This document shows, in pieces, positions 4,608-37,284 of a DNA stretch of 64,000 bases (position 1 is its first letter; each line of letters opens with the position of its first letter). The stretch comes from a virus. Made by a program: the position numbers and the translations under genes. Location: IMG/VR virus record IMGVR_UViG_3300034069_000660, positions 1-64,000 of that record, one strand, 5' to 3'. The notes beneath the pieces were generated by a model. That model was not told where the DNA came from. It did not search any database and was given only the letters and a program-made list of their open reading frames with translations.

Positions 4608-4610
4608 TGA

Positions 4611-4883: not shown

Positions 4884-4947
4884 CTCCTGTATGTTGAAGA
4901 CAGCCAGATAGCAGGAGCCGGGCCCGGCGGACAGCCCCGCGTCAATC

Positions 4948-5580: not shown

Positions 5581-5583
5581 GTC

Positions 5584-11500: not shown

Positions 11501-12756
11501 GCTTCGATCACCTCCGTCAGGAGGTCCCAGTGAGTTTCGTTGGCGAGCGTAGAGGACTGGCTATCCGGGGTCATCCGGGTCACCCGGATATCCCGCTGGT
11601 TACCGTTCGGGAGTCGAATGTCGGTTGACCACTGGTAGCCGCTGTTCGTGCGTCCGGTGAAGGTTTTGGACACGACGTCGGTGAACCCGCCACCGTCGCT
11701 CTGGACGCTGATCTTGATCTCGACGCTCGACGCTTTCAGATCACCGTTCGTCGTGTCCTGCATCTGCAACTGTGGCAGGCTGATGGTCACGCGCGCGACT
11801 GTCGCGTTCGGATTGCTGATCGAGCGTGTGACCGGGCCGGTCAGGACCCTGACCTCCGTGTTCACCTCGAAGCTATTTTCGGTCTGCGAGAAGCCCGGGA
11901 TAAAGTCCTGATCGGGCAGACCGACGCGCCGCTCGACCGCTACACCGGCGAAGTTGAACGATCCGTCCGCGTTCTGCAGCGGGGTGTCATCGAAATAGAT
12001 GGATCGCAGTCCGTCGAAGAGGCCGACGATCTCGCCCTCCGATACCAAGTCGAGGACCTTGGCTGTCGCCTGCGATTGCAAGCTGTTCGGGTCTTCCTGT
12101 GCCGCCCGGGTTGATCCCGCTGAACCGCCCTTGCCGCCACCCTTTTGCAGGCTGACCCATTCATCGCCGGCGGACGATCCACGAATGCCCGGTGTCGATC
12201 CGACATACCCGTCATAGACCGCGCCGCCTCCCGGATTTGTGGGATCGGCGCTGACAGAGGCCTCGTTGACGTCAGTGGTGCTGATCCCGGCGCTGACGAC
12301 AACCGATCCGGTCCTGAACCGACCATAGACAAGCGGGACAGGGTGTCCCTGTTCGGTGACATTCTCGGCTCCATCGAACACGAATGACGCCGTCTTCGTC
12401 GCCTCTTCCCGGCTGGCCGCCGTGGGTGCCTTCGGCATCGCCAGCACCGAAACAGATGCCACCGCCGCCAGCAGGAGCGTTGCCCCCAGCAGCACCTCCA
12501 CGACACCCCCGGCCGCGCCGGCCGGTGTGATATGGATATCACGCTGTCCACCAAGTTGGAGGTCGATCGCTTCCGCCGGCAGGACGGTGCCTTCCCCGAT
12601 GCTGACGACGTAGCCGCGATGCCTGATATATTCGCCAAAACCCGGCAGCTGGAAGACGAGCGCGCGGATGGCTTCCGTGGGTGACGCAACCGCCAGATCG
12701 AAGCGACGGCCGAAACGCTTACCTAGCCGTCCGTGAAGATGAATCGCGCGCAACAC
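5584..12756 (-). CDS. Tail-tip host-specificity protein (2390 aa from GTG 12756): lambda gpI-like domain fused in frame to a gpJ-like protein with a long modular C-terminal extension
   Basis: Single uninterrupted ORF 5584-12969. By-eye alignment to lambda I: IHLHGRLGKRFGRRFDL, PVPLVYGRFRTGSVVVS. By-eye alignment to lambda J: GGKGGSAGS, LVSEGEIVGL, RVTRMTPDS, YPDTALIGL, NPAWVFRDI, DKWGLYAIAQHCDG, NRGQAHR. GGAGA lies 7 nt upstream of GTG 12756. Confidence 0.9.
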   Translation of the reverse strand: MLRAIHLHGRLGKRFGRRFDLAVASPTEAIRALVFQLPGFGEYIRHRGYVVSIGEGTVLPAEAIDLQLGGQRDIHITPAGAAGGVVEVLLGATLLLAAVASVSVLAMPKAPTAASREEATKTASFVFDGAENVTEQGHPVPLVYGRFRTGSVVVSAGISTTDVNEASVSADPTNPGGGAVYDGYVGSTPGIRGSSAGDEWVSLQKGGGKGGSAGSTRAAQEDPNSLQSQATAKVLDLVSEGEIVGLFDGLRSIYFDDTPLQNADGSFNFAGVAVERRVGLPDQDFIPGFSQTENSFEVNTEVRVLTGPVTRSISNPNATVARVTISLPQLQMQDTTNGDLKASSVEIKISVQSDGGGFTDVVSKTFTGRTNSGYQWSTDIRLPNGNQRDIRVTRMTPDSQSSTLANETHWDLLTEVIEAKLSYPDTALIGLTVDARQFGSSIPARSYDLLGLIVEVPSNYDPVARTYGAVWDGTFKRAWTDNPAWVFRDIVVARRYGLGSRVPPESVDKWGLYAIAQHCDGMVPDGRGGMQPRYTINCVINNPAAAYDVLASIASNFRGFAYWGSGTVVAEQDRPEDPSILITPSNVVEGRISYGRVTPVEKRRSVSVVYWNDPEDGFRLTPEIVEDPDLIRRFGRRGDSADDAVTAFGVTNRGQAHRMALWGLEDEAPGSNSTAAYDVGDDHSFVGPGRIAAIADPMFTESRRGGRVRAATGSQMTLDAPVEIEAGQTYRLRVMLRNGSVSRRVVTNGPGTTATINLAGPDWPSPPMPGAVWSIETDQIANRQWRVRSITTDEPPFGVRAVLHDPTKWDRVELGRDISTPEFIDLPSGPLLPPTRIDAFEFLLRDGDAAIPSVQVSWTASTDSRITFYQAQFKAPGQGWEAFADSTDTSRTVRGVAIGQWSFRVRGLDSLGRKTRWVEGTFDLDGQVDSIPNVINLSLSSSDDAGVAALVWEQPDDRRPLRTEILYSLTTNIADAQSLGDVRTEFFVVPETGVYFVRNTFLGVTAENPPYIEVDSADLPAYLIREQLDAVTSDGQLTPREKSKAIIDYRGLIGDQSALDDRYQALGQPEDVEPFKIAADAAIDRLIAYLEALLPQSSWDDTSVVTPIPDPALYRDRWVEALDATSKYRSVLTARPVRDGESAYSIQFDNEMHTVPADPNGNVISYAGAEFTVSIFYGTQDVTESFSLDSTDNPQGLGYGGPFPAPEYPRYVINTGFDADELSARATYRFIGKDGTAHAGKRLIKVFSLAKSIAGDNGISPALISLSASALTARYDTAGNLIPGQAITFGAKRQNTNARTLFTLRNSAGQAVTAAYPPDQFAAAYGPQFWSAVDVDTMTLTEAGIMAVIRDHGGPTGRVTLIASIEGTGLTDAVSINKVQDGAKGADAETYTLTSSGARTIRPAGYLHGLRNADGQPFIDPNPEVGSSSDTYARSYTVCWRVSANVWRVRHFDVFGNGQITYPSDGFANGRPQGIDGMFNVLNAIPDGTPVIVYSSDEPNQNHTFPALLQAMYRCGASPEVFGKTFAYRGAYTLVGVAGWGQGRGFERVAGTIPHDPEGPTDALIQTTFQIVGGVPNSFTNGNNGVDGLPGVAGRNGITYYPYYAYANSPDGQIDFTTGEAGTRAYVGFGTGTSPTEPDSPIYYSWTAYKGPPFGLTSRNGVVVAGNQLIKQSGGYAWNADAYSTTGFRGGAAVAFRGTGDKGFMIGLNDDPNAGSSWEPLNYAWHPQSDGNASIYESGSYVGNFIVGYGLGLFQIIYDGNVIRYIYNGDVYREVPAPPNLTLYMDSSFLDEGARATDIEFTPVGAAAQSIQLSASSTTLRVGKDGNYFAGQRIDFNVQRTNMPGTTYFFLRNVDGNNIYAAPAAEYARQFPAQWGSSGPDNLYLTPQGAIDNMNAHGGAAGKFSMEAYVNGFTPVSRVTISKQQDGADGKNAIVAIADNETFTVPTDANGNYPAFPTDVSRGHLRVYEGLTEVTGQCTFTVQNPFYLDSYIDAAGAYFAIGLYNDTGYSDLVATYKGVAYTSRLTASKVKNGPRGTDGVNPPLISVAANPQAIRYDRDNNIISGDVVFTATLQNAMGPVSWRSLIGHGIYSTPGVSFSGNTMTISAARMRDVLAYNEANFGPATETIVASASGVSDMVTVTKIKDGSNGLAGAAGIGLIASPATFVIPSFANGTSKPTWAGGTCRIALNLGGQEIAADSYSYVAVSNVSSISISGQTISFTDIVGDRGEFTARATRAGVNYDLRITIVRANDGSAAFTSSTPFTGNFGAASGAANTTVPGGRTVRVSAYANYRAPNDQEGAGTLALYWRNLTDNGPLNFLGELGGSVASRYNQGSANDPIYNDIAGSVSTSYTFSSPSPDKSIEYSAAFRTTYGVLRLVDGRVAIDVIG
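5995..9333 (-). repeat. Protein-level module repeats inside the fibre gene (order B1-A1-insert-A2-B2-A3-B3); coordinates approximate
   Basis: A modules (~125 aa), each ending in a xK(V/Q/I)xDGxxG-type motif: approx 8605-8982, 6967-7341, 6307-6639. B modules (~105 aa): approx 8983-9333, 6640-6966, 5995-6306. Confidence 0.6.
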
Positions 12757-13534
12757 CGTCTGTTCTCCTGACCCAGTGCGTGATCCAAGGTGTCCATCGT
12801 GCGATGCTATCGCGTTTCGACAGGTGCCCGGGATCGCTTGGCAGACCAGATGACGGGTGATGCAGGGCAAGGCCTCCGTCAAGGTAGACCCCGGCGTGGT
12901 TCGGCACGTCAGAGCGGATCGCAGCGAGCCAGACGTCACCGTGCCGCACCGATCGTGCATCGATCTCAACGAAACCAGCGTCTGCGAAATATCGGCGATA
13001 GAGGTCCTTGTCGCCCGGCGTCTCCGCCTTCCACCACTCCCAGCTTCGCGGATAGTCCGGCAGATCGACCCCCGCCTCCCGGAGATACCACAGCCGGATC
13101 AGGGCATAACAGTCGGTCACGGCATGACGGAACGACCGTCCGACATAGGGTTCATCGTCACGTAGTTCGTCACCCCATGCGAACGGGATTTCGGTGGCCT
13201 GCCCGTTGGTCGATACGATGACGAAGGGCACGCACATTTCGATCTGCGATCGCATGTCCTGTTCGCTTGGGCAGTCCGGTCCCCCGGGATGACTGTGGCA
13301 CAAGGCGCGCAGGTCACCGGTCCTGATCAGCGCCGCCAGCACGCGACGATTGGCGAGGGCGGACAGTTTCGGCTCTGCCGCCACATTGACCAGCCTTTGA
13401 TATGCGCCCCGGCCGTCAATGTACCCCAGACATTCGGCCGGATATGCCTCGACGGCATGAATGCGAAGTGCCGCAACCGCTTCCGGGGTGCATAGCGCGG
13501 TACCGTCACACAGCTGCGCGCGGTCAGCACGCAT
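12719..13534 (-). CDS. Tail tip assembly protein, lambda gpK-like (JAB/MPN plus NlpC/P60 domains)
   Basis: Start is M70 of ORF 12719-13741, overlapping the gpL stop by 1 nt. Contains JAMM motif CHSHPGGPDCPSEQD. C-terminal Cys/His hydrolase region (TDCYALIRLWY..HAGVYL). Confidence 0.88.
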   Translation of the reverse strand: MRADRAQLCDGTALCTPEAVAALRIHAVEAYPAECLGYIDGRGAYQRLVNVAAEPKLSALANRRVLAALIRTGDLRALCHSHPGGPDCPSEQDMRSQIEMCVPFVIVSTNGQATEIPFAWGDELRDDEPYVGRSFRHAVTDCYALIRLWYLREAGVDLPDYPRSWEWWKAETPGDKDLYRRYFADAGFVEIDARSVRHGDVWLAAIRSDVPNHAGVYLDGGLALHHPSSGLPSDPGHLSKRDSIARWTPWITHWVRRTDGVARDSSSRTAR

Positions 13535-22676: not shown

Positions 22677-23705
22677 TTACGCCTTCGGCTTGACGGCGTT
22701 CTTGATGAACACGGCGAGGTCATCGCTGACCTTCTTCATGCCGAAGGCCTGCCGCGAATGGAAGTAATCGCTGTAGGCGCGGCCATCGCGGCCCCGGCTG
22801 ATGACGCCGCCCATATCGTTGGTCTGGCCCGGGACAAGGCTGTCCCACGCGAAGGTCGCGATGGCCGTGGGCGAGTTCAGCGACGGGTTCGGATCGATGT
22901 AGCCCAGCCACGCCGAGTCCGGATCGACGATGAAGGACAGGTCCTTGCCGCCCATCTTGTCGCCATCGGCCTTGTTCGGCACCTTCTCCGCCGCCGTGTT
23001 GTAGAGCGCCCGCGCGACCCGCAGGTTCTCGACCTCGAACAGCGCCGCCATGATCGCGTTCGTGATCGCCGCCGACGAAGTGTACTTCGTGCGGTCGATG
23101 AACTCCGGATGGTTCTTCAGCTTCTTCCGGACGTTCGAACCAAGGACCAGCGTGTTCGGCTCCATGCCGGTGGCGGCGCGGATCAGGTCCTTCCAGTCCT
23201 CGATATCGCTGATCGGCGTCGAGGCGGCATCGTCCCAGAACAGGAACTGATCGGGATCGTCGGTGTCCGGGTCCGCCGAACCGGCGATCTCCATGCCCCA
23301 GACCCCGGACTTGAAGAACGACGTCGCCCAGATGCGGTCGGCGCGGATCATCTGCTTGCCGGTCAGCAACCGGGTCGCATTTTCGTCGATGCGGCCCTGC
23401 TGGCGGCTGTTCTGCCGGGTACGGTCATCGACGACGTGTTCGAGCGCCCATTCTTCGGCGGTATAGGTGTCGTCGGTCAGACCATAGGTGACCTGCACCG
23501 GACGGCCGCCGAGCGGGCGCACCTGCGCTTCGTCGCGCCAGAAGTAACCGGGCGGGTAGACGTCGAACTTGCCGGCTTCGGCCGTGACCGTGATCCGCGA
23601 CGACGCCGCGCCGGCCACGAAGACCGTGTCGTCGGTCATCAGCGCGTAGCTGTAGTTCGTCAGATAGGCGTCGGGGTTCGTGTCCCCGGAGACTGCCTTT
23701 ACCAT
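22677..23705 (-). CDS. Major capsid protein, lambda gpE-like fold family
   Basis: 342 aa, located downstream of the decoration protein gene. Sequence style resembles the Phage_cap_E family. Confidence 0.8.
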   Translation of the reverse strand: MVKAVSGDTNPDAYLTNYSYALMTDDTVFVAGAASSRITVTAEAGKFDVYPPGYFWRDEAQVRPLGGRPVQVTYGLTDDTYTAEEWALEHVVDDRTRQNSRQQGRIDENATRLLTGKQMIRADRIWATSFFKSGVWGMEIAGSADPDTDDPDQFLFWDDAASTPISDIEDWKDLIRAATGMEPNTLVLGSNVRKKLKNHPEFIDRTKYTSSAAITNAIMAALFEVENLRVARALYNTAAEKVPNKADGDKMGGKDLSFIVDPDSAWLGYIDPNPSLNSPTAIATFAWDSLVPGQTNDMGGVISRGRDGRAYSDYFHSRQAFGMKKVSDDLAVFIKNAVKPKA

Positions 23706-26039: not shown

Positions 26040-27008
26040 TCAGCGTTGCTTGATCCGTGTTGCGATGGCGCACCGACACTGAATTGTCTCCGCCGCCGGG
26101 GCATCAGGGTCGCCGGGATAGCGCAGCACGCCGTTGACGGTGACCCATGTCTCGCCCCATGCCCGCTTCTCTTCGTTCAGCAGAAGATGCGTTTGCCGTT
26201 CGCGGCCATCGGTGCGAGTGACCCACTTTCGTTCGAGCCTATCCGCATCGATCGTACCGTCAGCGATGGCTTGACGATACATTTCTTCGTTGCCCTGATG
26301 CACAGCGCGCAGCGCCTCTGTGCGGCCGATCACTTCGGCCCGGTGCTTGACATATCGGGCGGTGTACCGCTCGACCAGCCAATCGATCTTCTGGGGGGAA
26401 AGCGCCTTGCCATCCCGCGCCGCGCGCTTGACCTGTGTGTCGCCGCGCCCGTCGCGCAGCGCCCGGCCTACGGCATCAGCGGCGGCATCAGCGTCGACAT
26501 GCACCCGGGTCAGCGCGGACCGATAGTTCGCAACGGCGGTCCACTGTTTCGTCGTCAGCCCGATACTGTCGCGGAAATTGCGCGCCTGCGCGATCGGGTT
26601 GATCGCGGCTTCAACGCCACTGACCAGCGCCAGCGACGTTGCGCGTCGCTGTTCGGCCGTGAACTCGCGGACCAGCGTCAGGCTGTTGCGCTGCATCGCC
26701 GCCACGGCACCTAAATTGACCTGATTGAAGACCAGCCGGCCGACGTTGGCACTGGTCAGGAATTCAGCCGTGGACTGCCCGGAGGTGACGAACGCGACGT
26801 TGCTGGCGGCTCCCAGCGCGTCGGCGGCGTGTTGGAGGCGATCGAGCGCGTCGGCGAGACGGCCTTGTTGGATCAGGTCTGCCAGTTCGTCGAGATCGAT
26901 CTCGTTTTTCAGGGCTTCAACAGCCGTCCTGAATATGGTCGCGATCCGCCGCTCCTGCAGGTCTAGCAGATCATTCAGACGCTGCGCCGGATCATAGGTA
27001 TCTGCCAT
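26040..27008 (-). CDS. Head morphogenesis protein, Mu F / SPP1 gp7-like
   Basis: Start is M23 of ORF 26040-27074. C-terminal ...TIQCRCAI motif is typical of Phage_Mu_F. Confidence 0.75.
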   Translation of the reverse strand: MADTYDPAQRLNDLLDLQERRIATIFRTAVEALKNEIDLDELADLIQQGRLADALDRLQHAADALGAASNVAFVTSGQSTAEFLTSANVGRLVFNQVNLGAVAAMQRNSLTLVREFTAEQRRATSLALVSGVEAAINPIAQARNFRDSIGLTTKQWTAVANYRSALTRVHVDADAAADAVGRALRDGRGDTQVKRAARDGKALSPQKIDWLVERYTARYVKHRAEVIGRTEALRAVHQGNEEMYRQAIADGTIDADRLERKWVTRTDGRERQTHLLLNEEKRAWGETWVTVNGVLRYPGDPDAPAAETIQCRCAIATRIKQR

Positions 27009-27009
27009 C

Positions 27010-27420
27010 CTACTTCCCGTCGGGCCCACGCCGGTCGCGGCACAGGAAGCCGTAGACCGCGCCGGCAGGATCACGCGATATCTGCTGCACGCAATACAAG
27101 GTCAGGTCCCCACCCTCTTCGTGCACGGTGCAGGCATCGTTCCGGAGAGGAAAACCATCGACCGGCACGGTGTCACCGATCAGGATCAGCTTGCGATCGT
27201 TCAGTTCGATCGTGATGCCGGCCGGCACGCTGTTAGGGTTGATATCCTCCCAGAACCCGACGCACTCGAACGTCACCGGCACGCTGGACCGGCCGCCGGT
27301 CAGATTGCCGGCTGTCCGGGGGCCGCGCACGTCGCGCGTGATCGTGACGGGCAAGAGCCCCTCTCCGAACACGTCTGCGATGATGCCGGCGATATCCGTG
27401 TCGAACAGGACGTTACCCAT
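27010..27420 (-). CDS. Hypothetical virion-module protein (136 aa)
   Basis: Start is M24 of ORF 27010-27489. ATGA overlap with the upstream gene. Confidence 0.5.
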   Translation of the reverse strand: MGNVLFDTDIAGIIADVFGEGLLPVTITRDVRGPRTAGNLTGGRSSVPVTFECVGFWEDINPNSVPAGITIELNDRKLILIGDTVPVDGFPLRNDACTVHEEGGDLTLYCVQQISRDPAGAVYGFLCRDRRGPDGK

Positions 27421-27968
27421 CAGTCCCGATCCTCCGCATAATAACCGTCGCGCCCATAATCGGACCAGCGCCCTTCGACCGGCCGGCACCCTGACGACGC
27501 ACCGCTGACGAATGCGCCAGCCATCGCCCCGTCATCGTCGGATGCGGTGGTCGCATCGCAGACCAACCCTGCGGCTTTCAGCATAAGCCACAAAGGCCCG
27601 GGGAGGGGGGCGTTGTCGGTTACGGCAGTGAAGAACTCGACCTGCGCCGAACCGGCCTTGGCGATCTTGACGTTGCTGTTGCCGCTGGCGTCGCCCATCA
27701 GTCGCGGCTTCGCGACCAGATCGGCCGCCAGCATGGCTGTTACCTCCTGCACAATCTCCGACTGTTCATCGGCAGTGGGGTCCGGTCGATCCGCGCACCA
27801 CGTCAGGGTCAGCAGCTTCCGGGTCGCCGATACGATACCCCGGCCCTTGGCCGCCTCCTGTAGCACTGCCCACCGGGCCGCCCGGGACACGTCGCCCGCA
27901 AGAAAGCGGTCCGCGCGATCGATCGTCGTCAGCGCGTCGAACTCATGATCACCGATCTTGACCTTCAC
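27420..27968 (-). CDS. Hypothetical protein (182 aa), possible head-tail adaptor with DnaT-like N-terminal domain
   Basis: ATGA-coupled to the portal gene. The N-terminus resembles a DnaT_2-type adaptor domain, but the match is weak. Confidence 0.45.
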   Translation of the reverse strand: MKVKIGDHEFDALTTIDRADRFLAGDVSRAARWAVLQEAAKGRGIVSATRKLLTLTWCADRPDPTADEQSEIVQEVTAMLAADLVAKPRLMGDASGNSNVKIAKAGSAQVEFFTAVTDNAPLPGPLWLMLKAAGLVCDATTASDDDGAMAGAFVSGASSGCRPVEGRWSDYGRDGYYAEDRD

Positions 27969-29533
27969 CGCCGCATCCTCCGCTTCGCCATGTTGCGTCG
28001 CGACCGCAGGACCTTGGCGATGCGACGATCTTCGGGATTATTAATAACAGGATCATCGGGATCGACCTGATCGGTCCGACCCGGGGTTAGGGACAGGTCC
28101 ATTTCGTCGACCCGCTCCGGCGGACGCGTCAGGCCCAGCAGGTCATAGACTTCGCCCACGGCGGGATCGTCGGGCATCAGCGGTGCCCCGGCCGTGGCGA
28201 GGTCCTTCAACGCGGTCAGGACCTGTTCGATATCGCGGTCGCTGATCTCATTGACGCCCATCTGCGGGCGGAGTTGTTCGGGCCAGCCGTTCAGATCGGC
28301 TATCGGGGTCAGCACGTCGCGATCTACGACCTCGACAAGGTCGAGCAATGTTGAAGTCACGGTCAGGAAGAACGTGCCGACCTTCGACCGCGCCAGTGCG
28401 AGCGATCCGGCACCGTCCGACCCTAGCAACAGATGCTCGACACCCAGCACCCGTGCCAGTTCTTCGTTCATTCGCTTCACGGCGTTTGCCATGGAGTCGA
28501 AGCTGGTCGATTCTCCGTTCAGTAGTTCGAGCGCCCATTTCGGGGTCGCGCTTGGCGTCTGGCCCTTTTCGGTGCTGTTGCTGGTGAACGGGTCTGACGG
28601 CAGCATCAGGCCGGTCTTCTTGTTGCGAACGTGCTTTTCGATGAAATCCCGCAAGGGGCGCAACATCATCGATCGACGGGCCTCCGCCTTTTTGCGTTCC
28701 GGACTGTCCGGTGCGCCCGCATCTTCAACCTCTTTCTTCATTTCCCCAAGCGGTGCCCGGGCAACGGGGATGCCACGCAAGTCGGTGGTGAAACCCGTTT
28801 CTTCCAAATCGAGGAACAGCTTCAACCGATCCGCTGTTTCGGCAAGGTGTCGGAATAACCCCATGCCCTCTGGATTGTCGGTCAGCAGATCGTCGACGGC
28901 GTAGACGATCTTTCCCCGGGGCAACTCCACCTCCGCAAGCCCGGTGACGCGCTGCACCACGGCCTCAATCGTTCCGGAGCGGTCGCGCTTCCACCGCACG
29001 ATGGAACGCTGTGGTCGATGCTCGATATCCAGCAGTCCGATCGAACCATCGTCCATCCGCTTCGCGGTCCATTCCATGACGGAGAAGCCTTGCAGCCGAA
29101 ACATCGCGATTTTCCGGATCACGCTTGACCAGCTGGTCGTCATTCCGAACAGCATGTCATAGGCAGCATCGGCATAGCCCTGCGCCACAGGGGCTTCGTT
29201 ACCGTTCAGGCCTTCTGGCGGGTTCACAGTCCAAACCGCGTTGGCGATCAGGTTCAGAAAGAGACGCACGCCGGCAGCAACGATCGTGACGTCACGAACC
29301 ATGCGGTCATATTCATCGAACCGGGCCTGCCCGATCAGATTCAATTTTCGCTCTGGCAGGCTGTATGAATAGCCCTGCAGATCGGCGGCGGAATTTAGAT
29401 TGCTGCCTAGCGTCTGCGTCGATCCGACGGCTTTCTGGATCACGTCATCCGCGTCTGCGGCGTCGGTTACGTCACGCTGACCGTCGCCCCGGAACCAGCC
29501 CCCTACGCGGTCGAAGATGCTTTCGTCGGCCAA
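27965..29533 (-). CDS. Portal protein (522 aa; TTG start)
   Basis: Size, position upstream of the MuF-like gene, and acidic/basic C-terminal tail. The start codon is TTG, with a GGGAG SD 7 nt upstream. Confidence 0.8.
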   Translation of the reverse strand: MADESIFDRVGGWFRGDGQRDVTDAADADDVIQKAVGSTQTLGSNLNSAADLQGYSYSLPERKLNLIGQARFDEYDRMVRDVTIVAAGVRLFLNLIANAVWTVNPPEGLNGNEAPVAQGYADAAYDMLFGMTTSWSSVIRKIAMFRLQGFSVMEWTAKRMDDGSIGLLDIEHRPQRSIVRWKRDRSGTIEAVVQRVTGLAEVELPRGKIVYAVDDLLTDNPEGMGLFRHLAETADRLKLFLDLEETGFTTDLRGIPVARAPLGEMKKEVEDAGAPDSPERKKAEARRSMMLRPLRDFIEKHVRNKKTGLMLPSDPFTSNSTEKGQTPSATPKWALELLNGESTSFDSMANAVKRMNEELARVLGVEHLLLGSDGAGSLALARSKVGTFFLTVTSTLLDLVEVVDRDVLTPIADLNGWPEQLRPQMGVNEISDRDIEQVLTALKDLATAGAPLMPDDPAVGEVYDLLGLTRPPERVDEMDLSLTPGRTDQVDPDDPVINNPEDRRIAKVLRSRRNMAKRRMRR

Positions 29534-29535
29534 GG

Positions 29536-29582
29536 CCCGGCTCCCTGATAGATTGCGGGCTGTCTTATATCAGGGAGCCGGG
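29536..29582 (-). promoter_or_regulatory. Perfect 15-bp hairpin that contains the portal Shine-Dalgarno sequence
   Basis: CCCGGCTCCCTGATA (29536-29550) pairs with TATCAGGGAGCCGGG (29568-29582), with a 17-nt loop. On the coding strand GGGAG lies in the 3' arm, 7 nt before TTG. Confidence 0.7.
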
Positions 29583-29597
29583 ACGGTCGAGTGATGG
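29573..29597. repeat. Direct repeat copy 1 flanking the 919-aa ORF
   Basis: GGGAGCC[GGGAC]GGTCGAGTGATGG. Matches 32384-32403 at 19 of 20 positions apart from the 5-nt insertion. Confidence 0.7.
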
Positions 29598-29612
29598 CCT
29601 GTGCCGTTTGTC

Positions 29613-32372
29613 TTAGACGGCGGCCATGGCTTCATACCATGCCTTCGCCAGCATGGACGGACGTTCCGGCGGGAATGTGGCCGTCTGACCGACGTGATGG
29701 GTAAGCCCCCATGCCGTCGGACGATAGTCGGTGTAGAAGGTCTGGTTGCCGCCGACGATCCGCTGATGTTCGGTGATCATGTATTTCAGCAGATCGTAGC
29801 CCTCTTGAGACGCAAGCAGGTTATGCCAGAGTTGCCCGTTTCCGATATCCTCAAACCCACCTTCATATTCAAAGAACGCCCATCCCTTCGACACGGCGTA
29901 ATCACGGTTTTGTGCCGCCCGCCCGTAAACGATGGGAACATCATTCTTGATCCGTGTTACCAAGGTGGCAAGATCATTAGCCGACAAGTCAATGCCCTTG
30001 TATCCGCCGATATAAGGGGCCGTCGAAATCGACTGAATATATGGAGCAATTCCCGGCTCCGCTTCGCATACCTGCGGAGCCAGCGCGACCCCATCATTGT
30101 GAAGATCGACATTGCAAACCAGCAGGTCCGCCACGCCTTCGGCAATGAATTCCTCCATCACCCACGTCATGACCTCCTTATGTCGGAAGGACCAATACCT
30201 TAGCACCTTGTCATGCTGGCTTCCGCCGGTGTCGACGTATTTGCCGGCGGCTACCGCCCGCGCCGCAAGACCATCGGAGCCGCCCAGTTCGTCGGACCCT
30301 GCAACCGCTCGCCACGCCGGCTGTCCCGAGTTCCAAATCTCGTTCGCCAGCGTCCACATGACAAACATCATGTGCAGCTTCGCCCACTTCGCCGTTCGCC
30401 GCGCCTCCGTCCGCACCCATGCTTCCGTCGCCTGCAACGGAATATGGAAACGACCGGTGTTCCCCGTGGCCGTCAAAAGGCCCAGCAAATCCGGGGTGCT
30501 GTGGCGGATTGTCTGCCCGATATCTCCCGCCTGCGTAATACGCGGATTAGGATCAAATGCGGTGTCGACCGTCGATTGCATATCCATCAAACGCGATCCG
30601 AACTGAAATTTAGCATATCTCGAATTGATCGCGATATGATCTACGTCCCAATAGCCGGGGCTTCGACGGCTACCGTCATCGTTGATCTCGTAAATACGGC
30701 AGTTTGTGTATGCGGTGGCACCAAGCGGCTGGATTTGCATCAGGAACACATCAAGCGACTGGCCGGGAACCTGCCATTCACCTCGATAATACCGTACCTG
30801 ATCCCAGTTGAACGTAAAGTCGACAAACGACTCACCATTTGCAGAACTGACCCCACTAACGTCCGTTATCGAAGCGCCGCCGCCGTTGTTTCTGGTGTCG
30901 AGGCCCGTCATATCGCTGTCAATCTGCAACCGCATACGCTGGCTTGGTGCCGCCATACCGCCAATGTAAGCCACCGGCCGACCACCATTTGCGAACGCAG
31001 ATGCAACCGGAGTGCCTGCCGTGTTGATAGGGGGAATGGTATCATTGCCGCCGTCAATTCTACCTCGCCAGCTGCCGACGTTCTTGTTGGCCGTCGGCGC
31101 GTTCAGATAGTAATAGTTGGACGCATTGGGATTTGTCGCGAATGACGGAGCCGCTGCCCACACCACTCCACTTTGGGTGGCAGTCTCTCCGCTGGTGGCT
31201 TGCGTGATCCGGATGCGCGTCGGGAAACCACGCTTGGCCGCCGATAGTGCCGACTTGGACCGCAGCCGCACGCGGCCCGCTTGCGGATACTCGACCACCT
31301 CGGCATTGACCTTGTCGATCAGCGTACCGGCACCATCACCGGTCAACACCTCGATTGTCAGGAAGTCATTGATCGGCATGTAATAGTCGATGACGGCATC
31401 GACGAACCCAAGGCTGTCATAGGTCACCGATGCGAAAGAAACCGGTTTGTAGAGAACCGCATAGGCCCCGCCGGTTACATTAGTAAATTCCGCATCCGAT
31501 CGGAACCTGATGCTGGTCCGATCTGCATTATAGGCGTCAGGGTTTGCCGCGATGATTGTTGCCTTGCTGATAAGACTCTTGCGGACCCCATCCTGCAAAA
31601 CCTCGAAGTCGCCATTCGGCAGAAGCGAAGCACGGATTTTCCCATTCGCGGGATCGCTAACAGGATCGACATGAATGTCTTCGCCGATTTTGGCGTATTG
31701 ATTTCCGGGTACACCGCCAAGGAATAGATATTCATCATTTGCGATGGTTAGAAATAGCGGCGCGCCCGTTTCGCCGATGCAGAAATATGCGAAGAAACCG
31801 ACATTCTGCGGCTGAAATTCCCAGAACTGCGCATTGGAATCGGTGTCAGCAACATCCGTGTCCGACGTCGTGAGATTGTCAAAATTGGGTGGTGTCGTCG
31901 CTGGCGCGGGGAAGGCGACGACCTTTGCATCGACTGGCGGCGGGGGCGGCGGCGGGGGCGGGGGTGCCGGCGGCGACACGTCGATGATCGAGGCGGTCAG
32001 GACGAACCTCTTCTCGATTGCGAAACCGGATGGTCCTTCGACGCGCACGGTCAGCGTGACGGTCTGGTTCAGCGGGATCGCTGCCGTCGTCGCGATCAGG
32101 CCCTCCGGGCTGACCTGAATAGTGGCGGGACCGGACACCTTGTAGAAGGTCGCATCGGGAATGGTCGATCGCAGCTGCGATACGGTTCCGGTGACACCCG
32201 CCACGATCTCCGTGTTCAGCAGGGTCAGCACCGCCGCACCGCCAGTTTCGAACAATTCGCGGAACATACGGTCCACCGCTGCCCAGCGGCGCGGACCGGC
32301 GAAGAGGGGGGTCTTTACGGGTTCATAACCTTCGGCCACGGCGGTCACTCCTATCGGGTTCCCGGCCTGCAT
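29613..32372 (-). CDS. Large accessory protein (919 aa): Ig-like N-terminus, Pro10 linker, beta-rich middle, C-terminal glycoside-hydrolase-like region (candidate polysaccharide depolymerase)
   Basis: ORF track. GC visibly lower than flanking genes. PPAPPPPPPPPPP at aa 134-146. LANEIWN (E678) and FFEYEGG (E835/E837) are reminiscent of clan GH-A catalytic motifs; that is inference only. Confidence 0.7.
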   Translation of the reverse strand: MQAGNPIGVTAVAEGYEPVKTPLFAGPRRWAAVDRMFRELFETGGAAVLTLLNTEIVAGVTGTVSQLRSTIPDATFYKVSGPATIQVSPEGLIATTAAIPLNQTVTLTVRVEGPSGFAIEKRFVLTASIIDVSPPAPPPPPPPPPPVDAKVVAFPAPATTPPNFDNLTTSDTDVADTDSNAQFWEFQPQNVGFFAYFCIGETGAPLFLTIANDEYLFLGGVPGNQYAKIGEDIHVDPVSDPANGKIRASLLPNGDFEVLQDGVRKSLISKATIIAANPDAYNADRTSIRFRSDAEFTNVTGGAYAVLYKPVSFASVTYDSLGFVDAVIDYYMPINDFLTIEVLTGDGAGTLIDKVNAEVVEYPQAGRVRLRSKSALSAAKRGFPTRIRITQATSGETATQSGVVWAAAPSFATNPNASNYYYLNAPTANKNVGSWRGRIDGGNDTIPPINTAGTPVASAFANGGRPVAYIGGMAAPSQRMRLQIDSDMTGLDTRNNGGGASITDVSGVSSANGESFVDFTFNWDQVRYYRGEWQVPGQSLDVFLMQIQPLGATAYTNCRIYEINDDGSRRSPGYWDVDHIAINSRYAKFQFGSRLMDMQSTVDTAFDPNPRITQAGDIGQTIRHSTPDLLGLLTATGNTGRFHIPLQATEAWVRTEARRTAKWAKLHMMFVMWTLANEIWNSGQPAWRAVAGSDELGGSDGLAARAVAAGKYVDTGGSQHDKVLRYWSFRHKEVMTWVMEEFIAEGVADLLVCNVDLHNDGVALAPQVCEAEPGIAPYIQSISTAPYIGGYKGIDLSANDLATLVTRIKNDVPIVYGRAAQNRDYAVSKGWAFFEYEGGFEDIGNGQLWHNLLASQEGYDLLKYMITEHQRIVGGNQTFYTDYRPTAWGLTHHVGQTATFPPERPSMLAKAWYEAMAAV

Positions 32373-32383
32373 ATCGCAGTGCC

Positions 32384-32403
32384 GGGAGCCGGTCGAGTGA
32401 CGG
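32384..32403. repeat. Direct repeat copy 2, immediately 3' of the tRNA
   Basis: GGGAGCCGGTCGAGTGACGG. See 29573-29597. Confidence 0.7.
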
Positions 32404-32408
32404 GGCTA

Positions 32409-32485
32409 TGGTTGCGGGGACCGGATTTGAACCGGCGACCTTCGGTTTATGAGACTGACGCGCTACCAGACTGCGCTACCCCGCG
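32409..32485 (-). tRNA. tRNA-Met (anticodon CAT), 77 nt with encoded CCA; initiator-like acceptor stem but non-canonical anticodon stem
   Basis: Sequence CGCGGGGTAGCGCAGTCTGGTAGCGCGTCAGTCTCATAAACCGAAGGTCGCCGGTTCAAATCCGGTCCCCGCAACCA folds as a cloverleaf. It closely resembles E. coli tRNA-fMet as recalled from memory. Confidence 0.9.
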
Positions 32486-32557
32486 CTGCCGGAATGACAA
32501 ACGGCCCGCCCCGGGTCAAGGGACAGGCCGTCAGACTTCGTGCTTTCGCGGATCAAT

Positions 32558-32725
32558 TCAGGGGCATTTGACGTCCGGGCTGGTCACCGTGCCATCGCGG
32601 CACTCGCCGTTCGTGTTCGGCGACGCCGTCGGAGCGGGGGAGGGCGTGGCGATGACGCGGGTGTCGTCGCAGCCGGACAGTGAGGCCGCAACGGCAAGGG
32701 CGGCGATGACAGAGAACTGACGCAT
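32558..32725 (-). CDS. Small lipoprotein (55 aa)
   Basis: Not in the ORF track (under 60 aa). Translation: MRQFSVIAALAVAASLSG|CDDTRV...VKCP. AAGGAG lies 8 nt upstream of the ATG. Lipobox LSGC. Confidence 0.7.
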   Translation of the reverse strand: MRQFSVIAALAVAASLSGCDDTRVIATPSPAPTASPNTNGECRDGTVTSPDVKCP

Positions 32726-32784
32726 GGGATCGACTCCTTTGGTGGAGCCGCGACGCTATGGCAGGTCGCCGGCTTCGTCCAGCG

Positions 32785-33012
32785 TCAGGACATGCCCTGT
32801 TGATTGTACCGAAACGTGAGCCGGGCGATTGCCCCGATCAGTAGACCGGCGAGGGGTGCCTTCGACCACATCGATCCTGTGGTGCCATCGCGATAGACGA
32901 TTGCAATGGCGACCGACGACACGGAGCCGGCACGGGCTTCGGTCAACACGGCTTCAAGCGCCTCGACCACGGAAGCGTCCGGAACGGGCGATAGGGGAAC
33001 AATCTCTGCCAT
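32785..33012 (-). CDS. Hypothetical protein (75 aa; start uncertain)
   Basis: M70 of ORF 32785-33219. The upstream part of that ORF looks non-coding (R/P/S-rich). No clear SD. Confidence 0.35.
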   Translation of the reverse strand: MAEIVPLSPVPDASVVEALEAVLTEARAGSVSSVAIAIVYRDGTTGSMWSKAPLAGLLIGAIARLTFRYNQQGMS

Positions 33013-33344
33013 GCGGCTGGATACGCGAACGGCCCCGCCGGTTGCAATCCCGGCGGGGCCGTGAGGTGACGCCAGCCAGTAGGGTCCCGGCGTGGCTGGC
33101 GTCTGGATCGGGCGGCCGAACCGTGACCTTGTCCACCTGTCCGGGTACTTCGGTGAACTGACCCTTACCATCAAACTTGCCGTGTGCGGTTTCTGGCTTT
33201 CGCCTCCCGCTCGGGTCACGGCCCCCTGTGATAGGCGAACCCATCATCTGTGCCGGCTGTCTCCTGACCGGCCTCCGCCGGCCAATCCCGGGGATGGACC
33301 GCCATTGCGCCGACGATCGGCGATTCGCAAGCCCGAAACGCAAA

Positions 33345-33366
33345 CGGCCTGCCGGTTAAGGCAGGC
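33345..33366 (-). terminator. Probable intrinsic terminator after the 89-aa exported-protein gene
   Basis: GGCCTGCC / GGCAGGCC 8-bp stem with a 6-nt loop. On the minus strand it is followed by GTTTGCGTTTCGGG. Confidence 0.55.
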
Positions 33367-33447
33367 CGCAGGGGCTGGGGCTATCGAGGCACCCCGCCTA
33401 CTTCCGGCGCGTGCGGGCGGGGGAACCCGGGCGCGCTGGCTATTCGA

Positions 33448-33717
33448 TCAGGTGTTGCGCGCGGCGGCGCGGCGGCTGACGCCGGCTTCGTGCCGGCGCG
33501 AATGCAGCAGCGCGCCGTCGACCGGGGTGCCGCCGATCGCGCGCGGCAGGACCGGGCCGTCGGTGGCGAGGCGGAACGGTTCGGGTGCGAACAGGTCGAT
33601 CAGCTGGCGGAGCATGACGACGGTCGAGGCCATGACGCGGTCGAACGCGGCGAAGGTTGCGGATGCGGCGAGCATGGGGACGGCGATCAGGAAGCCGAAA
33701 AGGGAACGATGACGCAT
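33448..33717 (-). CDS. Small secreted protein (89 aa)
   Basis: AGGAGA lies 6 nt upstream of the ATG. N-terminal signal peptide MRHRSLFGFLIAVPMLAASATFA. Confidence 0.6.
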   Translation of the reverse strand: MRHRSLFGFLIAVPMLAASATFAAFDRVMASTVVMLRQLIDLFAPEPFRLATDGPVLPRAIGGTPVDGALLHSRRHEAGVSRRAAARNT

Positions 33718-33775
33718 GACGATCTCCTATGGAGGGGTGTCGAGGTCTGAAACCTGCCGTGATCTGGCCCGGCGG

Positions 33776-35434
33776 TCAATATGCACCCCATGGGTCTTCG
33801 ACGTCCTCGCCGGCCGCCTGCATTGCCGCAAGACGCTCTTCGTCGCTGCCCGGCTCGACGATCTCTGGACCCGCGTTGGTGCCGCCCCGATCGGTCGGAA
33901 CCAGCTTGCCGAAGGCGCGGCTGCTGGCATCGACCTGATCCTTATATGATCCGGCGGGGAAGTTCCGCAATTCCTCCCTGTATGCACTGTTCCAATCGCC
34001 CTTCACCATGAAGACGCGGCCGGCTCCCACCATCGCGGCGAAAGGCTCCGCACGCGTTTCCTTGTCGCCGCTTTCTGGCGTAATTTCGAAGTCGAGCCCC
34101 GCCAGCAGTTCCGCCCAGTTCCACTTCACAACCTTGCCGGTCGCTCCGGGGTCCTGCGGCAGGCTGTGGAGCGTCCTTGGACCATAGTCGCGGGTGTCCT
34201 GACGGGTGACGACCTCGACCATCTTGTTCAGTTCGGTCGGGTTGGTGCGGCGGCGATCGACGTGCAGGATATAGTAATCCCCGCCGACGCGCTTCATCAG
34301 GGTCCGGACGGTAAACGGGCTGTTCTTCCGCTTGGACCCGGCGATATCCCACCCGGCGACTATCTTGCCGCCGCCCGGCGCGACCGGGACCGTCTCGATC
34401 AGATCGACCTTGAACATGCCGCCTTCGCGCGGTGCCGGGCTCTGCTGATACTGGCCTGCCCAGACATAGTCGCCGGCTTTCTTCTGGCGGGCGATGGCGG
34501 TCGGCGGCATCCGGACCGGGTCCATCAACTCGCCTTCATACGATCGTGGATCGCACCAGTTCTTTTTGCCGCCGCCCGGGACGTCGACGCGCAGCGGGGT
34601 TTCACACTTCCGCTCGACCTCGAACTCCATCGGGATCATCAGATGAACGAACCCGAAGTCACGCGCCAGCAACGCCCCTGTGAGATCGTCCTGATGGATA
34701 CGCTGCATCACGATCACCATCGCCGACGTTTCTGCGTCGTTCGACCGGTTCAGGCCACCTTCGATGAACTTGCGGACGGTGCCGGTGCGCTCTGTCTCAC
34801 TCTCGGCACCGTCGACGCTGTGCGGATCGTCGATGATCACGACGTCGCCGCGCTTGCCGGTGATCGCCGCGAAGGCGACGCCCTGACGGAACCCGAAATC
34901 GTGGTTTTCGAACGACGTCTCGCCGGCACGCTTCAACTTGCCGGACCGGTCGAACACCTCCGGCCATAGTTCGCGGTACCAGTCCGACAGGATCAGATCG
35001 CGGGTCTTCCGGGTGTCGCGGGTGACGTTGGCAAGATCGAACGATGACGATACCCAGCGGCTTGCGGCATTGCCGAACGGTCCCCAGACCCATGCCTGCC
35101 ACATCACCGACACGATCATCGACTTCGACGAACCCGGGGGGACGTTGATGATCAGCCACGGCGTCATCTGGCCCCGGGTGATCGCTTCCAGATGGTCGCA
35201 CATGGCTTGGAGGTGCCATGACCATTTCAGGGGGTTGCGCGGTTCGAGGACGTGCCACGCTTCCTTCACGAAGCCGGCGAGGGTGCGACACCGCCCCCGG
35301 ATTGCGTCGGCGTTCGCCCGGGTCTGTTCGAGGTCTGACTCGGCGAGTTCGCGCGCCAGCTGCGCCCGCAGGCTCCGAAGCGCGCCGCGATCCAGCGTCG
35401 CGACGTCGGGCAGATCAACCGTCAGCGCCGCCAT
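33776..35434 (-). CDS. terL: Terminase large subunit
   Basis: Walker A-like NVPPGSSKS and VVIIDDPHS. C-terminal nuclease-region motifs (GWDIAGS..., KDQVDAS). Confidence 0.9.
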   Translation of the reverse strand: MAALTVDLPDVATLDRGALRSLRAQLARELAESDLEQTRANADAIRGRCRTLAGFVKEAWHVLEPRNPLKWSWHLQAMCDHLEAITRGQMTPWLIINVPPGSSKSMIVSVMWQAWVWGPFGNAASRWVSSSFDLANVTRDTRKTRDLILSDWYRELWPEVFDRSGKLKRAGETSFENHDFGFRQGVAFAAITGKRGDVVIIDDPHSVDGAESETERTGTVRKFIEGGLNRSNDAETSAMVIVMQRIHQDDLTGALLARDFGFVHLMIPMEFEVERKCETPLRVDVPGGGKKNWCDPRSYEGELMDPVRMPPTAIARQKKAGDYVWAGQYQQSPAPREGGMFKVDLIETVPVAPGGGKIVAGWDIAGSKRKNSPFTVRTLMKRVGGDYYILHVDRRRTNPTELNKMVEVVTRQDTRDYGPRTLHSLPQDPGATGKVVKWNWAELLAGLDFEITPESGDKETRAEPFAAMVGAGRVFMVKGDWNSAYREELRNFPAGSYKDQVDASSRAFGKLVPTDRGGTNAGPEIVEPGSDEERLAAMQAAGEDVEDPWGAY

Positions 35435-35972
35435 CGGCCTCTCCGCTGTCGATCAGCTTGTCCAGCACGGGCAGCAGGGCGCGCTTCTCTTCGTCCGACA
35501 GCTTGGTCAGGTCGAAGTTCGCGTGGCGGATCGGTCCACCATCCCGGCCGGTCATTTCGACCTTCGTGGACCAGCCGCCAAGCCGCGCCAGCGTGAATTT
35601 CAGCGCGTCGAGGTTGCCCTTGGCCTTGTCCGTGGTGCCGTTGCGAGCATGTTCCATCATCTGCGACCCGAGATCGAACATCACCTGTGCACGGCCCATT
35701 TCCATGTCATCGGCGAAGTGCCGGCGCAGCGTGTCGCGGCTGAAACCCATGAGCCGCGCGATGAAGTGTTCGCCTTGGATCGGGAAGACCTTCGCCATTT
35801 CCCGGACCTTCTCGCGCTGTTCGTCGGTCGGGACGAAGGGCGGGTTGCCGATGCGACCACCGTTCTTTCCTTCTCGCGTCCCTGCACCGGGCGGGGTGCC
35901 CCGGGCATCGTCGTCTCTGATCTTCGCGCCCTTCCTGCGCAGTGGTTTTTCGTCGGACATGGGCGGCGTCAT
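35415..35972 (-). CDS. terS: Terminase small subunit (HTH-containing, 185 aa; alternative start 35960)
   Basis: Immediately upstream of terL and overlapping it. Basic N-terminus and a helix-turn-helix-like segment. Confidence 0.65.
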   Translation of the reverse strand: MTPPMSDEKPLRRKGAKIRDDDARGTPPGAGTREGKNGGRIGNPPFVPTDEQREKVREMAKVFPIQGEHFIARLMGFSRDTLRRHFADDMEMGRAQVMFDLGSQMMEHARNGTTDKAKGNLDALKFTLARLGGWSTKVEMTGRDGGPIRHANFDLTKLSDEEKRALLPVLDKLIDSGEADGGADG

Positions 35973-36003: not shown

Positions 36004-37284
36004 TCAGTCGAACAGGGTCAGGCCCTTGGCGGGCGCGGCGCGGGCGGCTTTGCGGCGCAGGTGCTGTTCCATCACGCGGCCTCCTTCGCCGCGCAGATGC
36101 GCCAGCTTGCGCGTGATATCGGCGACATGTTCCGGGACCAGATCGATCAGTTCCGCGTTCATCCGCTCCGCCAGTGCCGCGATCCCGGTGGTGCCTGATC
36201 CGGCAAACGGGTCCAGCAGCAGGCCGCCCGGCGGACAAATCAGGCGGATCAGCCACCGCATCACGTCCACCGGCTTTACAGTTGGGTGTTCGGACCCAAG
36301 TCGATCGAGCGGGCCAGCCTTGGCACTGTAGAAGAACCGGGAGGCGTTGCCCGACGATCCACCGATGCCGTGTTCAGCTGCGCCACCCTCAAATCCGCCG
36401 AATATCTCGCCGAACTTGTTGCTGCGCCGGCTGGCCGGGGTGCCGCCCCCGGACTGTTCCGGGAACAGCGCCACGACCTCGTCGCTGCCGTCATGGATCA
36501 GATTGGCGGGGAAGCGGCCGGCTGGCGTGGTGTCGATAAGCGCGCGGGGCGACGCGACGCGGGGCACGGCTGGATCGTGACGGCAGGGTATCGCCCCCGC
36601 CCCCTCGCGCAGCACTTCGTCATGAGGCACCCGACAGGCATCGATATTCAGCCCGCCGACGCCGTGGGTCAGCACGTTCGAGGCGACGGTCGGTTTATTA
36701 AACGGCTTTCGCGCCAGACATATCGGCTCCCAAGCCGGTTTCAGGGCAGTGCCCCACCCGTTCCATTCCTGCGCGGCGGCGGTGGCAGGGACAGTGATGG
36801 TCCCCGGATGCCCGGCATAGTCCCCAAAGGCGTTGGTATTCAGGGAAGGGGTTTGACGCTGCGCCACGGCGGCATCGTAACCAACCACTTCACGAACGGC
36901 CCCAGCTTCCCGATCGATTGCCTTCGACACGTCCAACGACTTCGGGAATCCAGACCCATAGGTCCACGCCAGCTGATCCCTGATCTCGAACCCGGCGTCT
37001 TCAATCGCGACCGCCATCCGGTGATAGGTCCTCGTACCGCTGAACGCGACAAGGTGCGCGCCGGGCTTCATCTGGTCGAAGATCGCGCGCCACGTCTCCG
37101 GGTTGAAGGCGACACCGCTGCGATCCCAGCCGCGACCCATGAATCCGAGTTCATACGGGGGGTCTGTCACCACCGCGTCGAACAGCGGTCCGGTCCGTGC
37201 GCGCAGCACCGCGACGCAATCGCCTTCGGTGACGTTGATTCTGACGGGACTGGGGGGTAGCTGGGTCATGCGGTCTGTGTCCAT
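36004..37284 (-). CDS. Orphan DNA methyltransferase (N6-A/N4-C, beta class; alternative start 37269)
   Basis: DPPY motif (VVTDPPYELG) precedes the SAM motif (LLDPFAGSGTTGIAA). No adjacent endonuclease. Confidence 0.85.
   Translation of the reverse strand: MDTDRMTQLPPSPVRINVTEGDCVAVLRARTGPLFDAVVTDPPYELGFMGRGWDRSGVAFNPETWRAIFDQMKPGAHLVAFSGTRTYHRMAVAIEDAGFEIRDQLAWTYGSGFPKSLDVSKAIDREAGAVREVVGYDAAVAQRQTPSLNTNAFGDYAGHPGTITVPATAAAQEWNGWGTALKPAWEPICLARKPFNKPTVASNVLTHGVGGLNIDACRVPHDEVLREGAGAIPCRHDPAVPRVASPRALIDTTPAGRFPANLIHDGSDEVVALFPEQSGGGTPASRRSNKFGEIFGGFEGGAAEHGIGGSSGNASRFFYSAKAGPLDRLGSEHPTVKPVDVMRWLIRLICPPGGLLLDPFAGSGTTGIAALAERMNAELIDLVPEHVADITRKLAHLRGEGGRVMEQHLRRKAARAAPAKGLTLFD

Follow-up and report, generated by a model that had tools for sequence, protein, structure and literature searches.

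How much of the initiator anticodon stem can a bacterial initiator tRNA lose and still serve at the start of translation? The question is raised by a 77-nt tRNA(CAU) gene in a tailed-phage genome, the IMG/VR virus record IMGVR_UViG_3300034069_000660, of which positions 1 to 64,000 (a stretch of 64,000 nt, hereafter the window) were analyzed. The three consecutive G:C pairs that initiator tRNAs have in their anticodon stem (29:41, 30:40, and 31:39) rank among biology's most conserved features; the window tRNA resembles initiators over most of its length and keeps only the middle pair. The reading that we favor, with moderate confidence, is that the gene would encode a functional accessory initiator tRNA (tRNAfMet type) of the phage.

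Initiator-type features and a reduced anticodon stem

A single tRNA gene was identified in the window by ARAGORN (positions 32409-32485, minus strand, anticodon CAU); the late genes are encoded on this strand as well. It matches the Rfam tRNA model with 63.2 bits (E = 2e-11; gathering score 29), and the Rfam alignment flags pairs 1:72 and 29:41 as non-standard. In the RNA sense the tRNA reads CGCGGGGUAGCGCAGUCUGGUAGCGCGUCAGUCUCAUAAACCGAAGGUCGCCGGUUCAAAUCCGGUCCCCGCAACCA. The acceptor stem comprises a C1·A72 mismatch, G2-G7 paired with C66-C71 (including the specific pairs G2:C71, C3:G70, and G4:C69), A73, and an encoded CCA. The D stem (G10-C13:G22-C25) includes C11:G24, and the anticodon stem consists of U27:A43, C28:G42, A29·C41, G30:C40, and U31:A39; the anticodon loop is CUCAUAA and the T-loop UUCAAAU. 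All of the nucleotides for the tertiary fold are present (U8, A14, G15, G18, G19, G26, A44, C48, and the T-loop). The tRNA has one internal mismatch and a thermodynamically marginal anticodon stem, with the other stems and the tertiary nucleotides intact, and its changes are mostly compensatory. The same 77 nt, including the A·C mismatch, occur in an independent assembly (a Logan contig from run SRR23972086); neither the exact tRNA nor its exact anticodon arm was matched in the viral, metagenome, or genome contig collections. A preliminary description of this DNA, made from the letters alone, had recognized a 77-nt tRNA-Met(CAU) here, on which ARAGORN and Rfam agree, and the particulars that it listed (the C1:A72 mismatch, G2-G7:C66-C71, an E. 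coli-type T-loop, the encoded CCA, the A29:C41 mismatch, G30:C40, U31:A39, and C11:G24) all hold in the sequence; the strand was not given there.

The window tRNA is identical to E. coli tRNAfMet at 68 of 77 positions (88.3%), which bears out the near-collinearity noted in the same description; the reference was E. coli tRNAfMet1, and BLAST against E. coli records gave a matching identity. Identity to three initiators of Sphingomonadales (Sphingobium and Sphingomonas genes from a plasmid collection) is 83-86%, compared with 66% to the E. coli elongator tRNAMet (metT); three of the four Sphingomonadales comparison tRNAs sit directly after 23S-5S rRNA. Because identity to initiators is so much higher than to the elongator, the window tRNA is, judging by its sequence, derived from an initiator tRNA. 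Elongator tRNAMet identity, and that of tRNA-Ile2 (in which CAU is modified to lysidine), were ruled out by overall similarity and acceptor-stem features.

Among the three classical initiator hallmarks, the window tRNA retains the non-Watson-Crick position 1:72 (C1·A72), a mismatch that holds initiators off EF-Tu and promotes formylation. Together with this mismatch, G2:C71, C3:G70, G4:C69, and A73 are the determinants for formylation and for methionyl-tRNA synthetase (MetRS) known from E. coli tRNAfMet, and the acceptor determinants for both enzymes are complete. The two other hallmarks are absent. A purine at position 11 paired with a pyrimidine at 24 (A11:U24) is a mark of initiators, and the window tRNA has C11:G24. 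The three-G:C run is lacking too, and the stem does not correspond to any of the variants that occur naturally in cells according to PMC5389676 (au/GC/GC, GC/GC/gu, and au/GC/gu, written from pair 29:41 to pair 31:39). The preliminary description had considered the tRNA to be without the initiator anticodon-stem signature; this is correct for two of the three pairs but not for G30:C40, the sole pair required in E. coli, which is kept.

Loss of the stem signature and of the purine 11:pyrimidine 24 pair might also be taken to indicate a dual-function or elongator-like methionine tRNA, a reading that we consider very improbable. Identity to elongator tRNAMet is just 66%, and the retained C1·A72 would both block EF-Tu and promote formylation, although C11:G24 is an elongator-type arrangement and a U1:A72 pair occurs in two related phage tRNAs (L003 and L007, see below). 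Mutants of E. coli tRNAfMet can work in initiation and elongation alike, and some natural initiators do have a 1:72 pair; however, dual function in that work needed formylation-deficient changes, which are not present in the window tRNA (PMC6265465). The earlier proposal of a hybrid initiator/elongator that biases initiation towards GTG or TTG starts is not upheld, given that the anticodon and its loop are unchanged and C1·A72 is kept.

The nearest cultured relatives of the window phage are the Erythrobacter phages ZS04 and vB_EliS_R6L (R6L), and it is only from these that we infer a host, an alphaproteobacterium of the Sphingomonadales. Sphingomonadales initiator stems read U27:A43, C28:G42, A29:U41, G30:C40, and G31:C39, and the same arm was found in well over 100 genomes, the majority of them from alphaproteobacteria and some from Verrucomicrobiota and other groups. 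According to PMC5389676, an A:U first pair (29:41) is natural in every alphaproteobacterium, and the ribosomes of rhizobia seem to have evolved along with it. Because alphaproteobacterial initiators already have A29:U41/GC/GC, A29 is lineage-typical and inherited. Thus, the possibility allowed for at the outset, that the stem is simply that of the host lineage, is borne out for A29 but not for U31:A39, C41 (the source of the mismatch), or C11:G24, which, as far as these comparisons reach, are not typical of the lineage.

A pattern combining an initiator-type D-arm, G30:C40, and U31:A39 was searched for in IMG/VR and in a genome collection of 185,579 species (one genome per species), and it was found in 22 IMG/VR contigs versus 4 genome-collection contigs. 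Phage genes adjoin the tRNA in all four of the latter (a terminase; a Sak4-like protein; phage methylase and ATPase families; and an exonuclease by a 32-tRNA array), and one of the four carries a tRNA identical to one on a viral contig. When positions 31 and 39 are masked, the nearest neighbor is a G31:C39 tRNA for 17 of the 22 distinct U31:A39 tRNAs, so that the variant occurs on many backbones. The D-arm of the phage family to which the window belongs (GCGCAGUCUGGUAGCGC), together with a CAU loop, was matched exactly in 11 viral contigs and 4 genome contigs, all of the latter from metagenome-assembled genomes (MAGs). Among initiator-type tRNAs, U31:A39, and possibly the C11:G24 D-arm, were encountered here only in viral contexts.

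The four MAG contigs with the family D-arm (L013-L016) are assigned to Dehalococcoidia, Rhodocyclaceae, Bacteroidota, and Woesearchaeota; that the phyla are unrelated suggests binned phage DNA. The 32 tRNA genes on an Anaerolineales MAG contig (L153, 2009-5944) lie beside a phage-type exonuclease and include a fully paired (G1:C72) tRNA(CAU) with C11:G24 and U31:A39. On two viral contigs (L163, 108-432; L177, 2976-3519), the U31:A39 tRNA is adjoined by an amber-suppressor tRNA (anticodon CUA, labeled Pyl by ARAGORN) and by another tRNA whose anticodon is called as 4 nt (atca); these neighbors may serve stop-codon recoding.

Variation and selection among phage copies

The viral sample comprised 81 tRNA(CAU) genes with an initiator-type D-arm, among the matches listed, and the viral counts that follow refer to it. 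Stems are of type au/GC/GC in 43%, GC/GC/GC in 28%, ua/GC/GC in 14%, and other types in 15%. G30:C40 is retained in 79 of the 81 (98%) and G31:C39 in 71 (88%); U31:A39 occurs in one and G24 in eight. An internal stem mismatch (at 28:42 or 29:41) is found in 0/81 of these other viral initiator-type tRNAs. In the R6L-like family, to which the window belongs, three of five lineages have one: A29·C41 in the window, A28·A42 in ZS04 and R6L, and C29·U41 in L003, the closest relative. Stems of cultured phages include ua/GC/GC (CcrSC), ua/GC/cg (phiM12), and gc/GC/au (V1VFA-S). Phage initiators with a degenerate three-G:C run are therefore a known, little-discussed kind, of which the window copy is the most reduced found here; literature searches found no published study of how the anticodon stem varies among phage initiators.

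Of the three pairs, only the middle one, G30:C40, is essential in E. coli, and stems of type au/GC/gu and cg/GC/cg sustain growth, at the cost of lower fitness in the cold or in minimal medium (PMC5389676). By analogy, the viral pattern, in which G30:C40 is near-invariant and the flanking pairs vary, matches the E. coli genetics, and function with G30:C40 alone is plausible; the phage copies resemble an experiment done by nature, with an outcome in line with the genetics of the middle pair.

Both ZS04 and R6L encode an initiator-type tRNA(CAU) in the gap between the terminase large subunit gene (terL) and the portal gene, at L001 6001-6077 (PV416405.1 8406-8482) and L002 4045-4121 (KY006853.1 61555-61631), respectively. 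Their stems have the A28·A42 mismatch followed by C29:G41/GC/GC. The tRNA is unannotated in both GenBank records; of practical use, then, is that homologous tRNA genes of two published phages await annotation. L003, an IMG/VR or metagenome relative with a terL 83% identical to that of the window, also has a tRNA(CAU) between terL and portal. In three further relatives (L005, L304, and L311) the tRNA(CAU) lies just downstream of terL, their portal genes not having been located, and in L007 it lies upstream of terL. Two of these copies have unusual anticodon loops: that of L007 (4738-4814, the same as L305 2738-2814) has C33 instead of the near-universal U33 (loop CCCAUAA), and that of L304 (2663-2737) reads UUCAUAU, with U at both 32 and 38, and is accompanied by a G31·U39 wobble.

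Covariation was assessed in an alignment of 11 phage copies and two cellular initiators (n = 13). Pairing was found in 94% of cells, compared with 77% in shuffles and about 40% with slid partners; both-sided changes occur in 12 pairs, and the D and T stems are paired throughout (100% of cells). Pair G30:C40 does not vary (13/13), nor do G2:C71 and C3:G70, and G31:C39 is present in 12 of the 13, the exception being the window tRNA. Position 1:72 is unpaired in 11 sequences and U:A in the other two. The window tRNA differs from the Sphingobium initiator at 11 positions, six of which form three compensatory pairs (11:24, 31:39, and 51:63), while one leads to G49:U65. Because of these compensatory double changes and the covariation across the cloverleaf, the pattern of change shows, at the level of aligned sequences, selection for a folded tRNA and not free decay.

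A comparison with L003 places most of the change in one stem: 8 of 10 anticodon-stem positions differ, versus 3-6 of 30 in the other stems, and 6 of 67 positions differ over the rest of the tRNA. Synonymous sites of terL and portal are about 35-47% diverged between the same two genomes. Accelerated (positive) evolution of the stem was considered and dropped, since synonymous divergence of about 40%, with pairing kept, explains 8 of 10. That a working initiator of the family's ancestor is now decaying in this phage, being deprived of function by the mismatch and the missing G31:C39 too recently for erasure, is in our judgment quite unlikely. Such a decaying copy could account for an anticodon arm without a predicted fold and for a unique combination of changes, the exact arm being unmatched in the viral, metagenome, and genome collections; furthermore, two relatives (L004 and L006) lost or never had the tRNA, and a 908-aa gene was inserted right beside it in a recent rearrangement. 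Against this, the damage is confined to one stem, with acceptor pairs 2-7 and the D and T stems fully paired and the tertiary nucleotides intact; the 31:39 change is compensatory, as expected under selection for pairing; the 6/67 differences from L003 outside the stem contrast with about 40% neutral divergence; and a promoter-like element upstream is conserved (see below).

The stem changes could also be adaptive. It has been argued for other phage tRNAs that changes near cleavage sites protect against host nucleases (PMC10264068), and by extension U31:A39 and A29·C41 may have been selected to evade a host endonuclease that cuts initiator tRNA, for example a VapC-type PIN toxin, so that initiation would continue once the host initiator tRNA was destroyed; we regard this as unlikely. 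VapC toxins cleave the initiator tRNA where its anticodon stem meets the loop, and a toxin of the alphaproteobacterium Bosea does so on expression in E. coli (PMC8522696). In the window tRNA, A replaces C at position 39 of this junction, and the loop is unchanged. The cleavage site was reportedly placed at A38/C39 by Winther and Gerdes in 2011. Evasion would fit the distribution of U31:A39, in 22 IMG/VR contigs versus 4 genome contigs that all have it by phage genes, its occurrence on many backbones (17/22 nearest neighbors being G31:C39), and the mismatches in three of five family lineages versus 0/81 in the viral background among the matches listed. However, the anticodon loop is the same as that of the host, whereas published escape mutations are loop changes; the 8/10 stem divergence fits synonymous divergence of about 40% with pairing, such that positive selection is unneeded; U31:A39 is rare in viruses too (1/81 among the matches listed); no such nuclease is known for the host; and Shigella phages mostly avoid encoding tRNA-fMet (PMC10264068). 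A broader form of the proposal is a virus-only class of initiators, in which U31:A39, the C11:G24 D-arm, and the stem mismatches would all be adaptive, hiding the phage initiator from host toxins or defense nucleases, with competence for the ribosomal P site maintained by G30:C40 alone; this too is doubtful. Were evasion the true explanation, phages would carry a private, defense-proof tRNA for the start of translation, and if the virus-only changes are protective, the idea of tRNA-based counter-defense would extend to the initiation step.

Genomic context and upstream element

Phage genes lie on both sides of the tRNA in the window (Table 1). The tRNA is phage cargo, because it is surrounded by terL, portal, and capsid genes and because relatives have a tRNA(CAU) in the same gap; the preliminary description, which had placed it between terL and portal as cargo and not as an attachment site, was right on this point. 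An attachment-site role was ruled out: a scan of 30 of the larger window open reading frames (ORFs) detected no integrase domain, phage genes flank the tRNA, and no integrated relatives of the window terL were found in the 185,579 species genomes.

Table 1. Features of the window surrounding the tRNA(CAU) gene, in their order on the minus strand.
Feature	Position	Strand	Evidence or remarks
DNA methylase	36004-37284	minus	
terS-like	35415-35972	minus	
terL (terminase large subunit), upstream neighbor	33776..35434	minus	PHROG 38, E = 5e-70; Pfam Terminase_6C
Small ORF, 89 aa	33448-33717	minus	Signal-peptide-like N-terminus; counterpart in L003
Terminator-like hairpin	33369-33344	minus	Between two small secreted-type ORFs
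Small ORF, 55 aa	32558..32725	minus	Lipoprotein-type signal (…SLSGC…, LSGC lipobox); GGAG ribosome-binding site
Promoter-like element	32491..32519	minus	TTGACC (32519-32514), 17-nt spacer, CATTCC (32496-32491), 5 nt to tRNA position 1
tRNA(CAU), initiator-derived	32409..32485	minus	77 nt, CCA in gene; ARAGORN, Rfam tRNA model, identities, covariation
908-aa gene	29613..32339	minus	919 aa from ATG at 32372; begins 70 nt after tRNA
Portal, downstream neighbor	27965..29533	minus	Pfam Portal_Mu, PHROG 113; 77% identity to L003 portal
MuF-like head morphogenesis	26040-27074	minus	
Major capsid	22677-23705	minus	
Tail genes and muramidase	downstream of capsid	minus	

The terL-portal gap of the window also holds three small ORFs and the inserted 908-aa gene. 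The 55-aa ORF is the final one before the tRNA and was gene-called in the Logan contig too. The 908-aa gene is an insertion. In L003 the portal gene follows directly after the tRNA, without the 908-aa gene, and in the window a portal leader of about 70 nt (CACTCGACCG…CTG(C)GATAT…GGGAGCCGGGC-TTGGCCGAC) is present twice, as diverged copies after the tRNA (32320-32412) and before portal (29510-29602) that flank the insert; the G+C content of the insert is 0.57-0.60, versus about 0.65 elsewhere in the window. Pfam, PHROG, and PDB gave no match to the encoded protein; its 14 remote homologues, one of which has an F5/8 type C domain, are uninformative. A functional link between the tRNA and the 908-aa gene was dropped, there being no family match, no informative homologue, and no such gene in the nearest relative. 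Elsewhere in the window, a 2461-aa ORF with a TTG start (5584-12969, minus strand) lies in the tail region, where G+C content is lower (0.57-0.59 across 4001-10000).

The promoter-like element immediately upstream of the tRNA has a close counterpart in L003 (TTGACC-N17-CATTCA-5 nt) and a looser one in ZS04 and R6L (TTGCCA-N17-CAGTCC/CAGATC-7 nt). The approximately 45 nt upstream of the tRNA match at about 90% (by eye) between the window and L003, compared with about 53-66% for the third positions of terL and portal codons, and the element is thus conserved well above the synonymous-site level. A scan of 32000-34000 for the sigma-70 consensus called no promoter, and the element misfits the sigma-70 -10 consensus; from its conservation, it may nevertheless act as a promoter.

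Proposed role and comparison with known systems

For a functional accessory initiator, the following sequence of events is proposed. The tRNA would be transcribed from its own promoter-like element in the late block, or by read-through from terL, and matured by host RNase P; because CCA is encoded in the gene, CCA addition would be unneeded. Host MetRS would charge it by way of the CAU anticodon and A73, and host formyltransferase would formylate it by way of C1·A72, G2:C71, C3:G70, and G4:C69. Initiation factor 2 would then deliver it to the P site, where the retained G30:C40 would be the minimum anticodon-stem determinant, and the initiator tRNA pool would be topped up during synthesis of virion proteins. 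Constraint on the rest of the three-G:C signature would be relaxed in phage copies, because fidelity is left to the host copy and a supplementary copy need not sustain growth in every condition, and because the host lineage already has A29:U41; among the copies seen, that of the window would have drifted furthest. Relaxed constraint of this kind suffices to explain the observations.

Several points weigh against this assignment. The C11:G24 pair costs a minor formylation determinant, as known from E. coli tRNAfMet. The isolated anticodon arm has a free energy of 0.0 kcal/mol (no predicted fold), versus -5.3 for the host-type arm, and the minimum free energy structure is more stable than the cloverleaf by 1.7 kcal/mol. 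The internal mismatch has no equivalent in the other viral initiator-type tRNAs (0/81 among the matches listed), and the host is deduced only by way of the related Erythrobacter phages. Additionally, L004 and L006 are without a tRNA(CAU), and because these relatives do without it the tRNA is dispensable.

Should the window tRNA indeed undergo charging and formylation and be used, it would mark a lower limit, set by nature, for the requirements of a bacterial initiator, and it would offer a substrate for examining discrimination by initiation factor 3 (IF3) and 16S rRNA in an alphaproteobacterial system.

Its closest cellular counterparts, the Sphingobium and Sphingomonas initiators (au/GC/GC), share with it the CUCAUAA loop, C1·A72, G2:C71, C3:G70, G4:C69, A73, A29, G30:C40, the T-loop, and the encoded CCA; the E. 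coli initiator has this anticodon loop as well. The window tRNA has U31:A39 where these have G31:C39, C41 for U41, and C11:G24 for A11:U24, and its D-loop is AGUCUGGUA versus AGCCCGGUA. Furthermore, the cellular genes are located by rRNA, whereas the window tRNA is phage-encoded and outside an rRNA operon.

Among experimental systems, the unconventional E. coli initiators of the Varshney laboratory provide the nearest parallel: variants that keep only G30:C40 sustain growth, and this is the invariant anticodon-stem pair of the phage family (PMC5389676). Those variants are engineered, or are of Mycoplasma or alphaproteobacterial and not phage origin, and the passages of the source considered here mention neither U31:A39 nor a 29:41 mismatch. 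The phage tRNAs treated in PMC10264068 resemble the window tRNA in differing from the host in the anticodon stem-loop; their changes are in the loop and match known resistance mutations, whereas in the window tRNA the loop is unchanged and the stem differs. The same work reports that Shigella flexneri phages generally avoid encoding tRNA-fMet, the nuclease cutting within the anticodon (PMC10264068).

Initiator-type tRNAs are present in GenBank records of the phages CcrSC (Caulobacter; annotated tRNA-fMet), phiKX1 (Komagataeibacter), phiM12 (Sinorhizobium), and V1VFA-S (Rhizobium), the alphaproteobacterial phage copies being annotated as tRNA-Met or tRNA-fMet and having variant stems. Those of phages other than phiM12 share with the ZS04 and R6L copies an initiator-type acceptor stem in which position 1:72 is either mismatched or weakly paired as U:A. 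Like the window tRNA, the GenBank phage copies keep G30:C40 and vary at 29:41 and sometimes at 31:39. ZS04 and R6L are closer still, with the tRNA in the same terL-portal gap and with the same C11:G24 D-arm. The window copy alone combines U31:A39 with an internal 29:41 mismatch.

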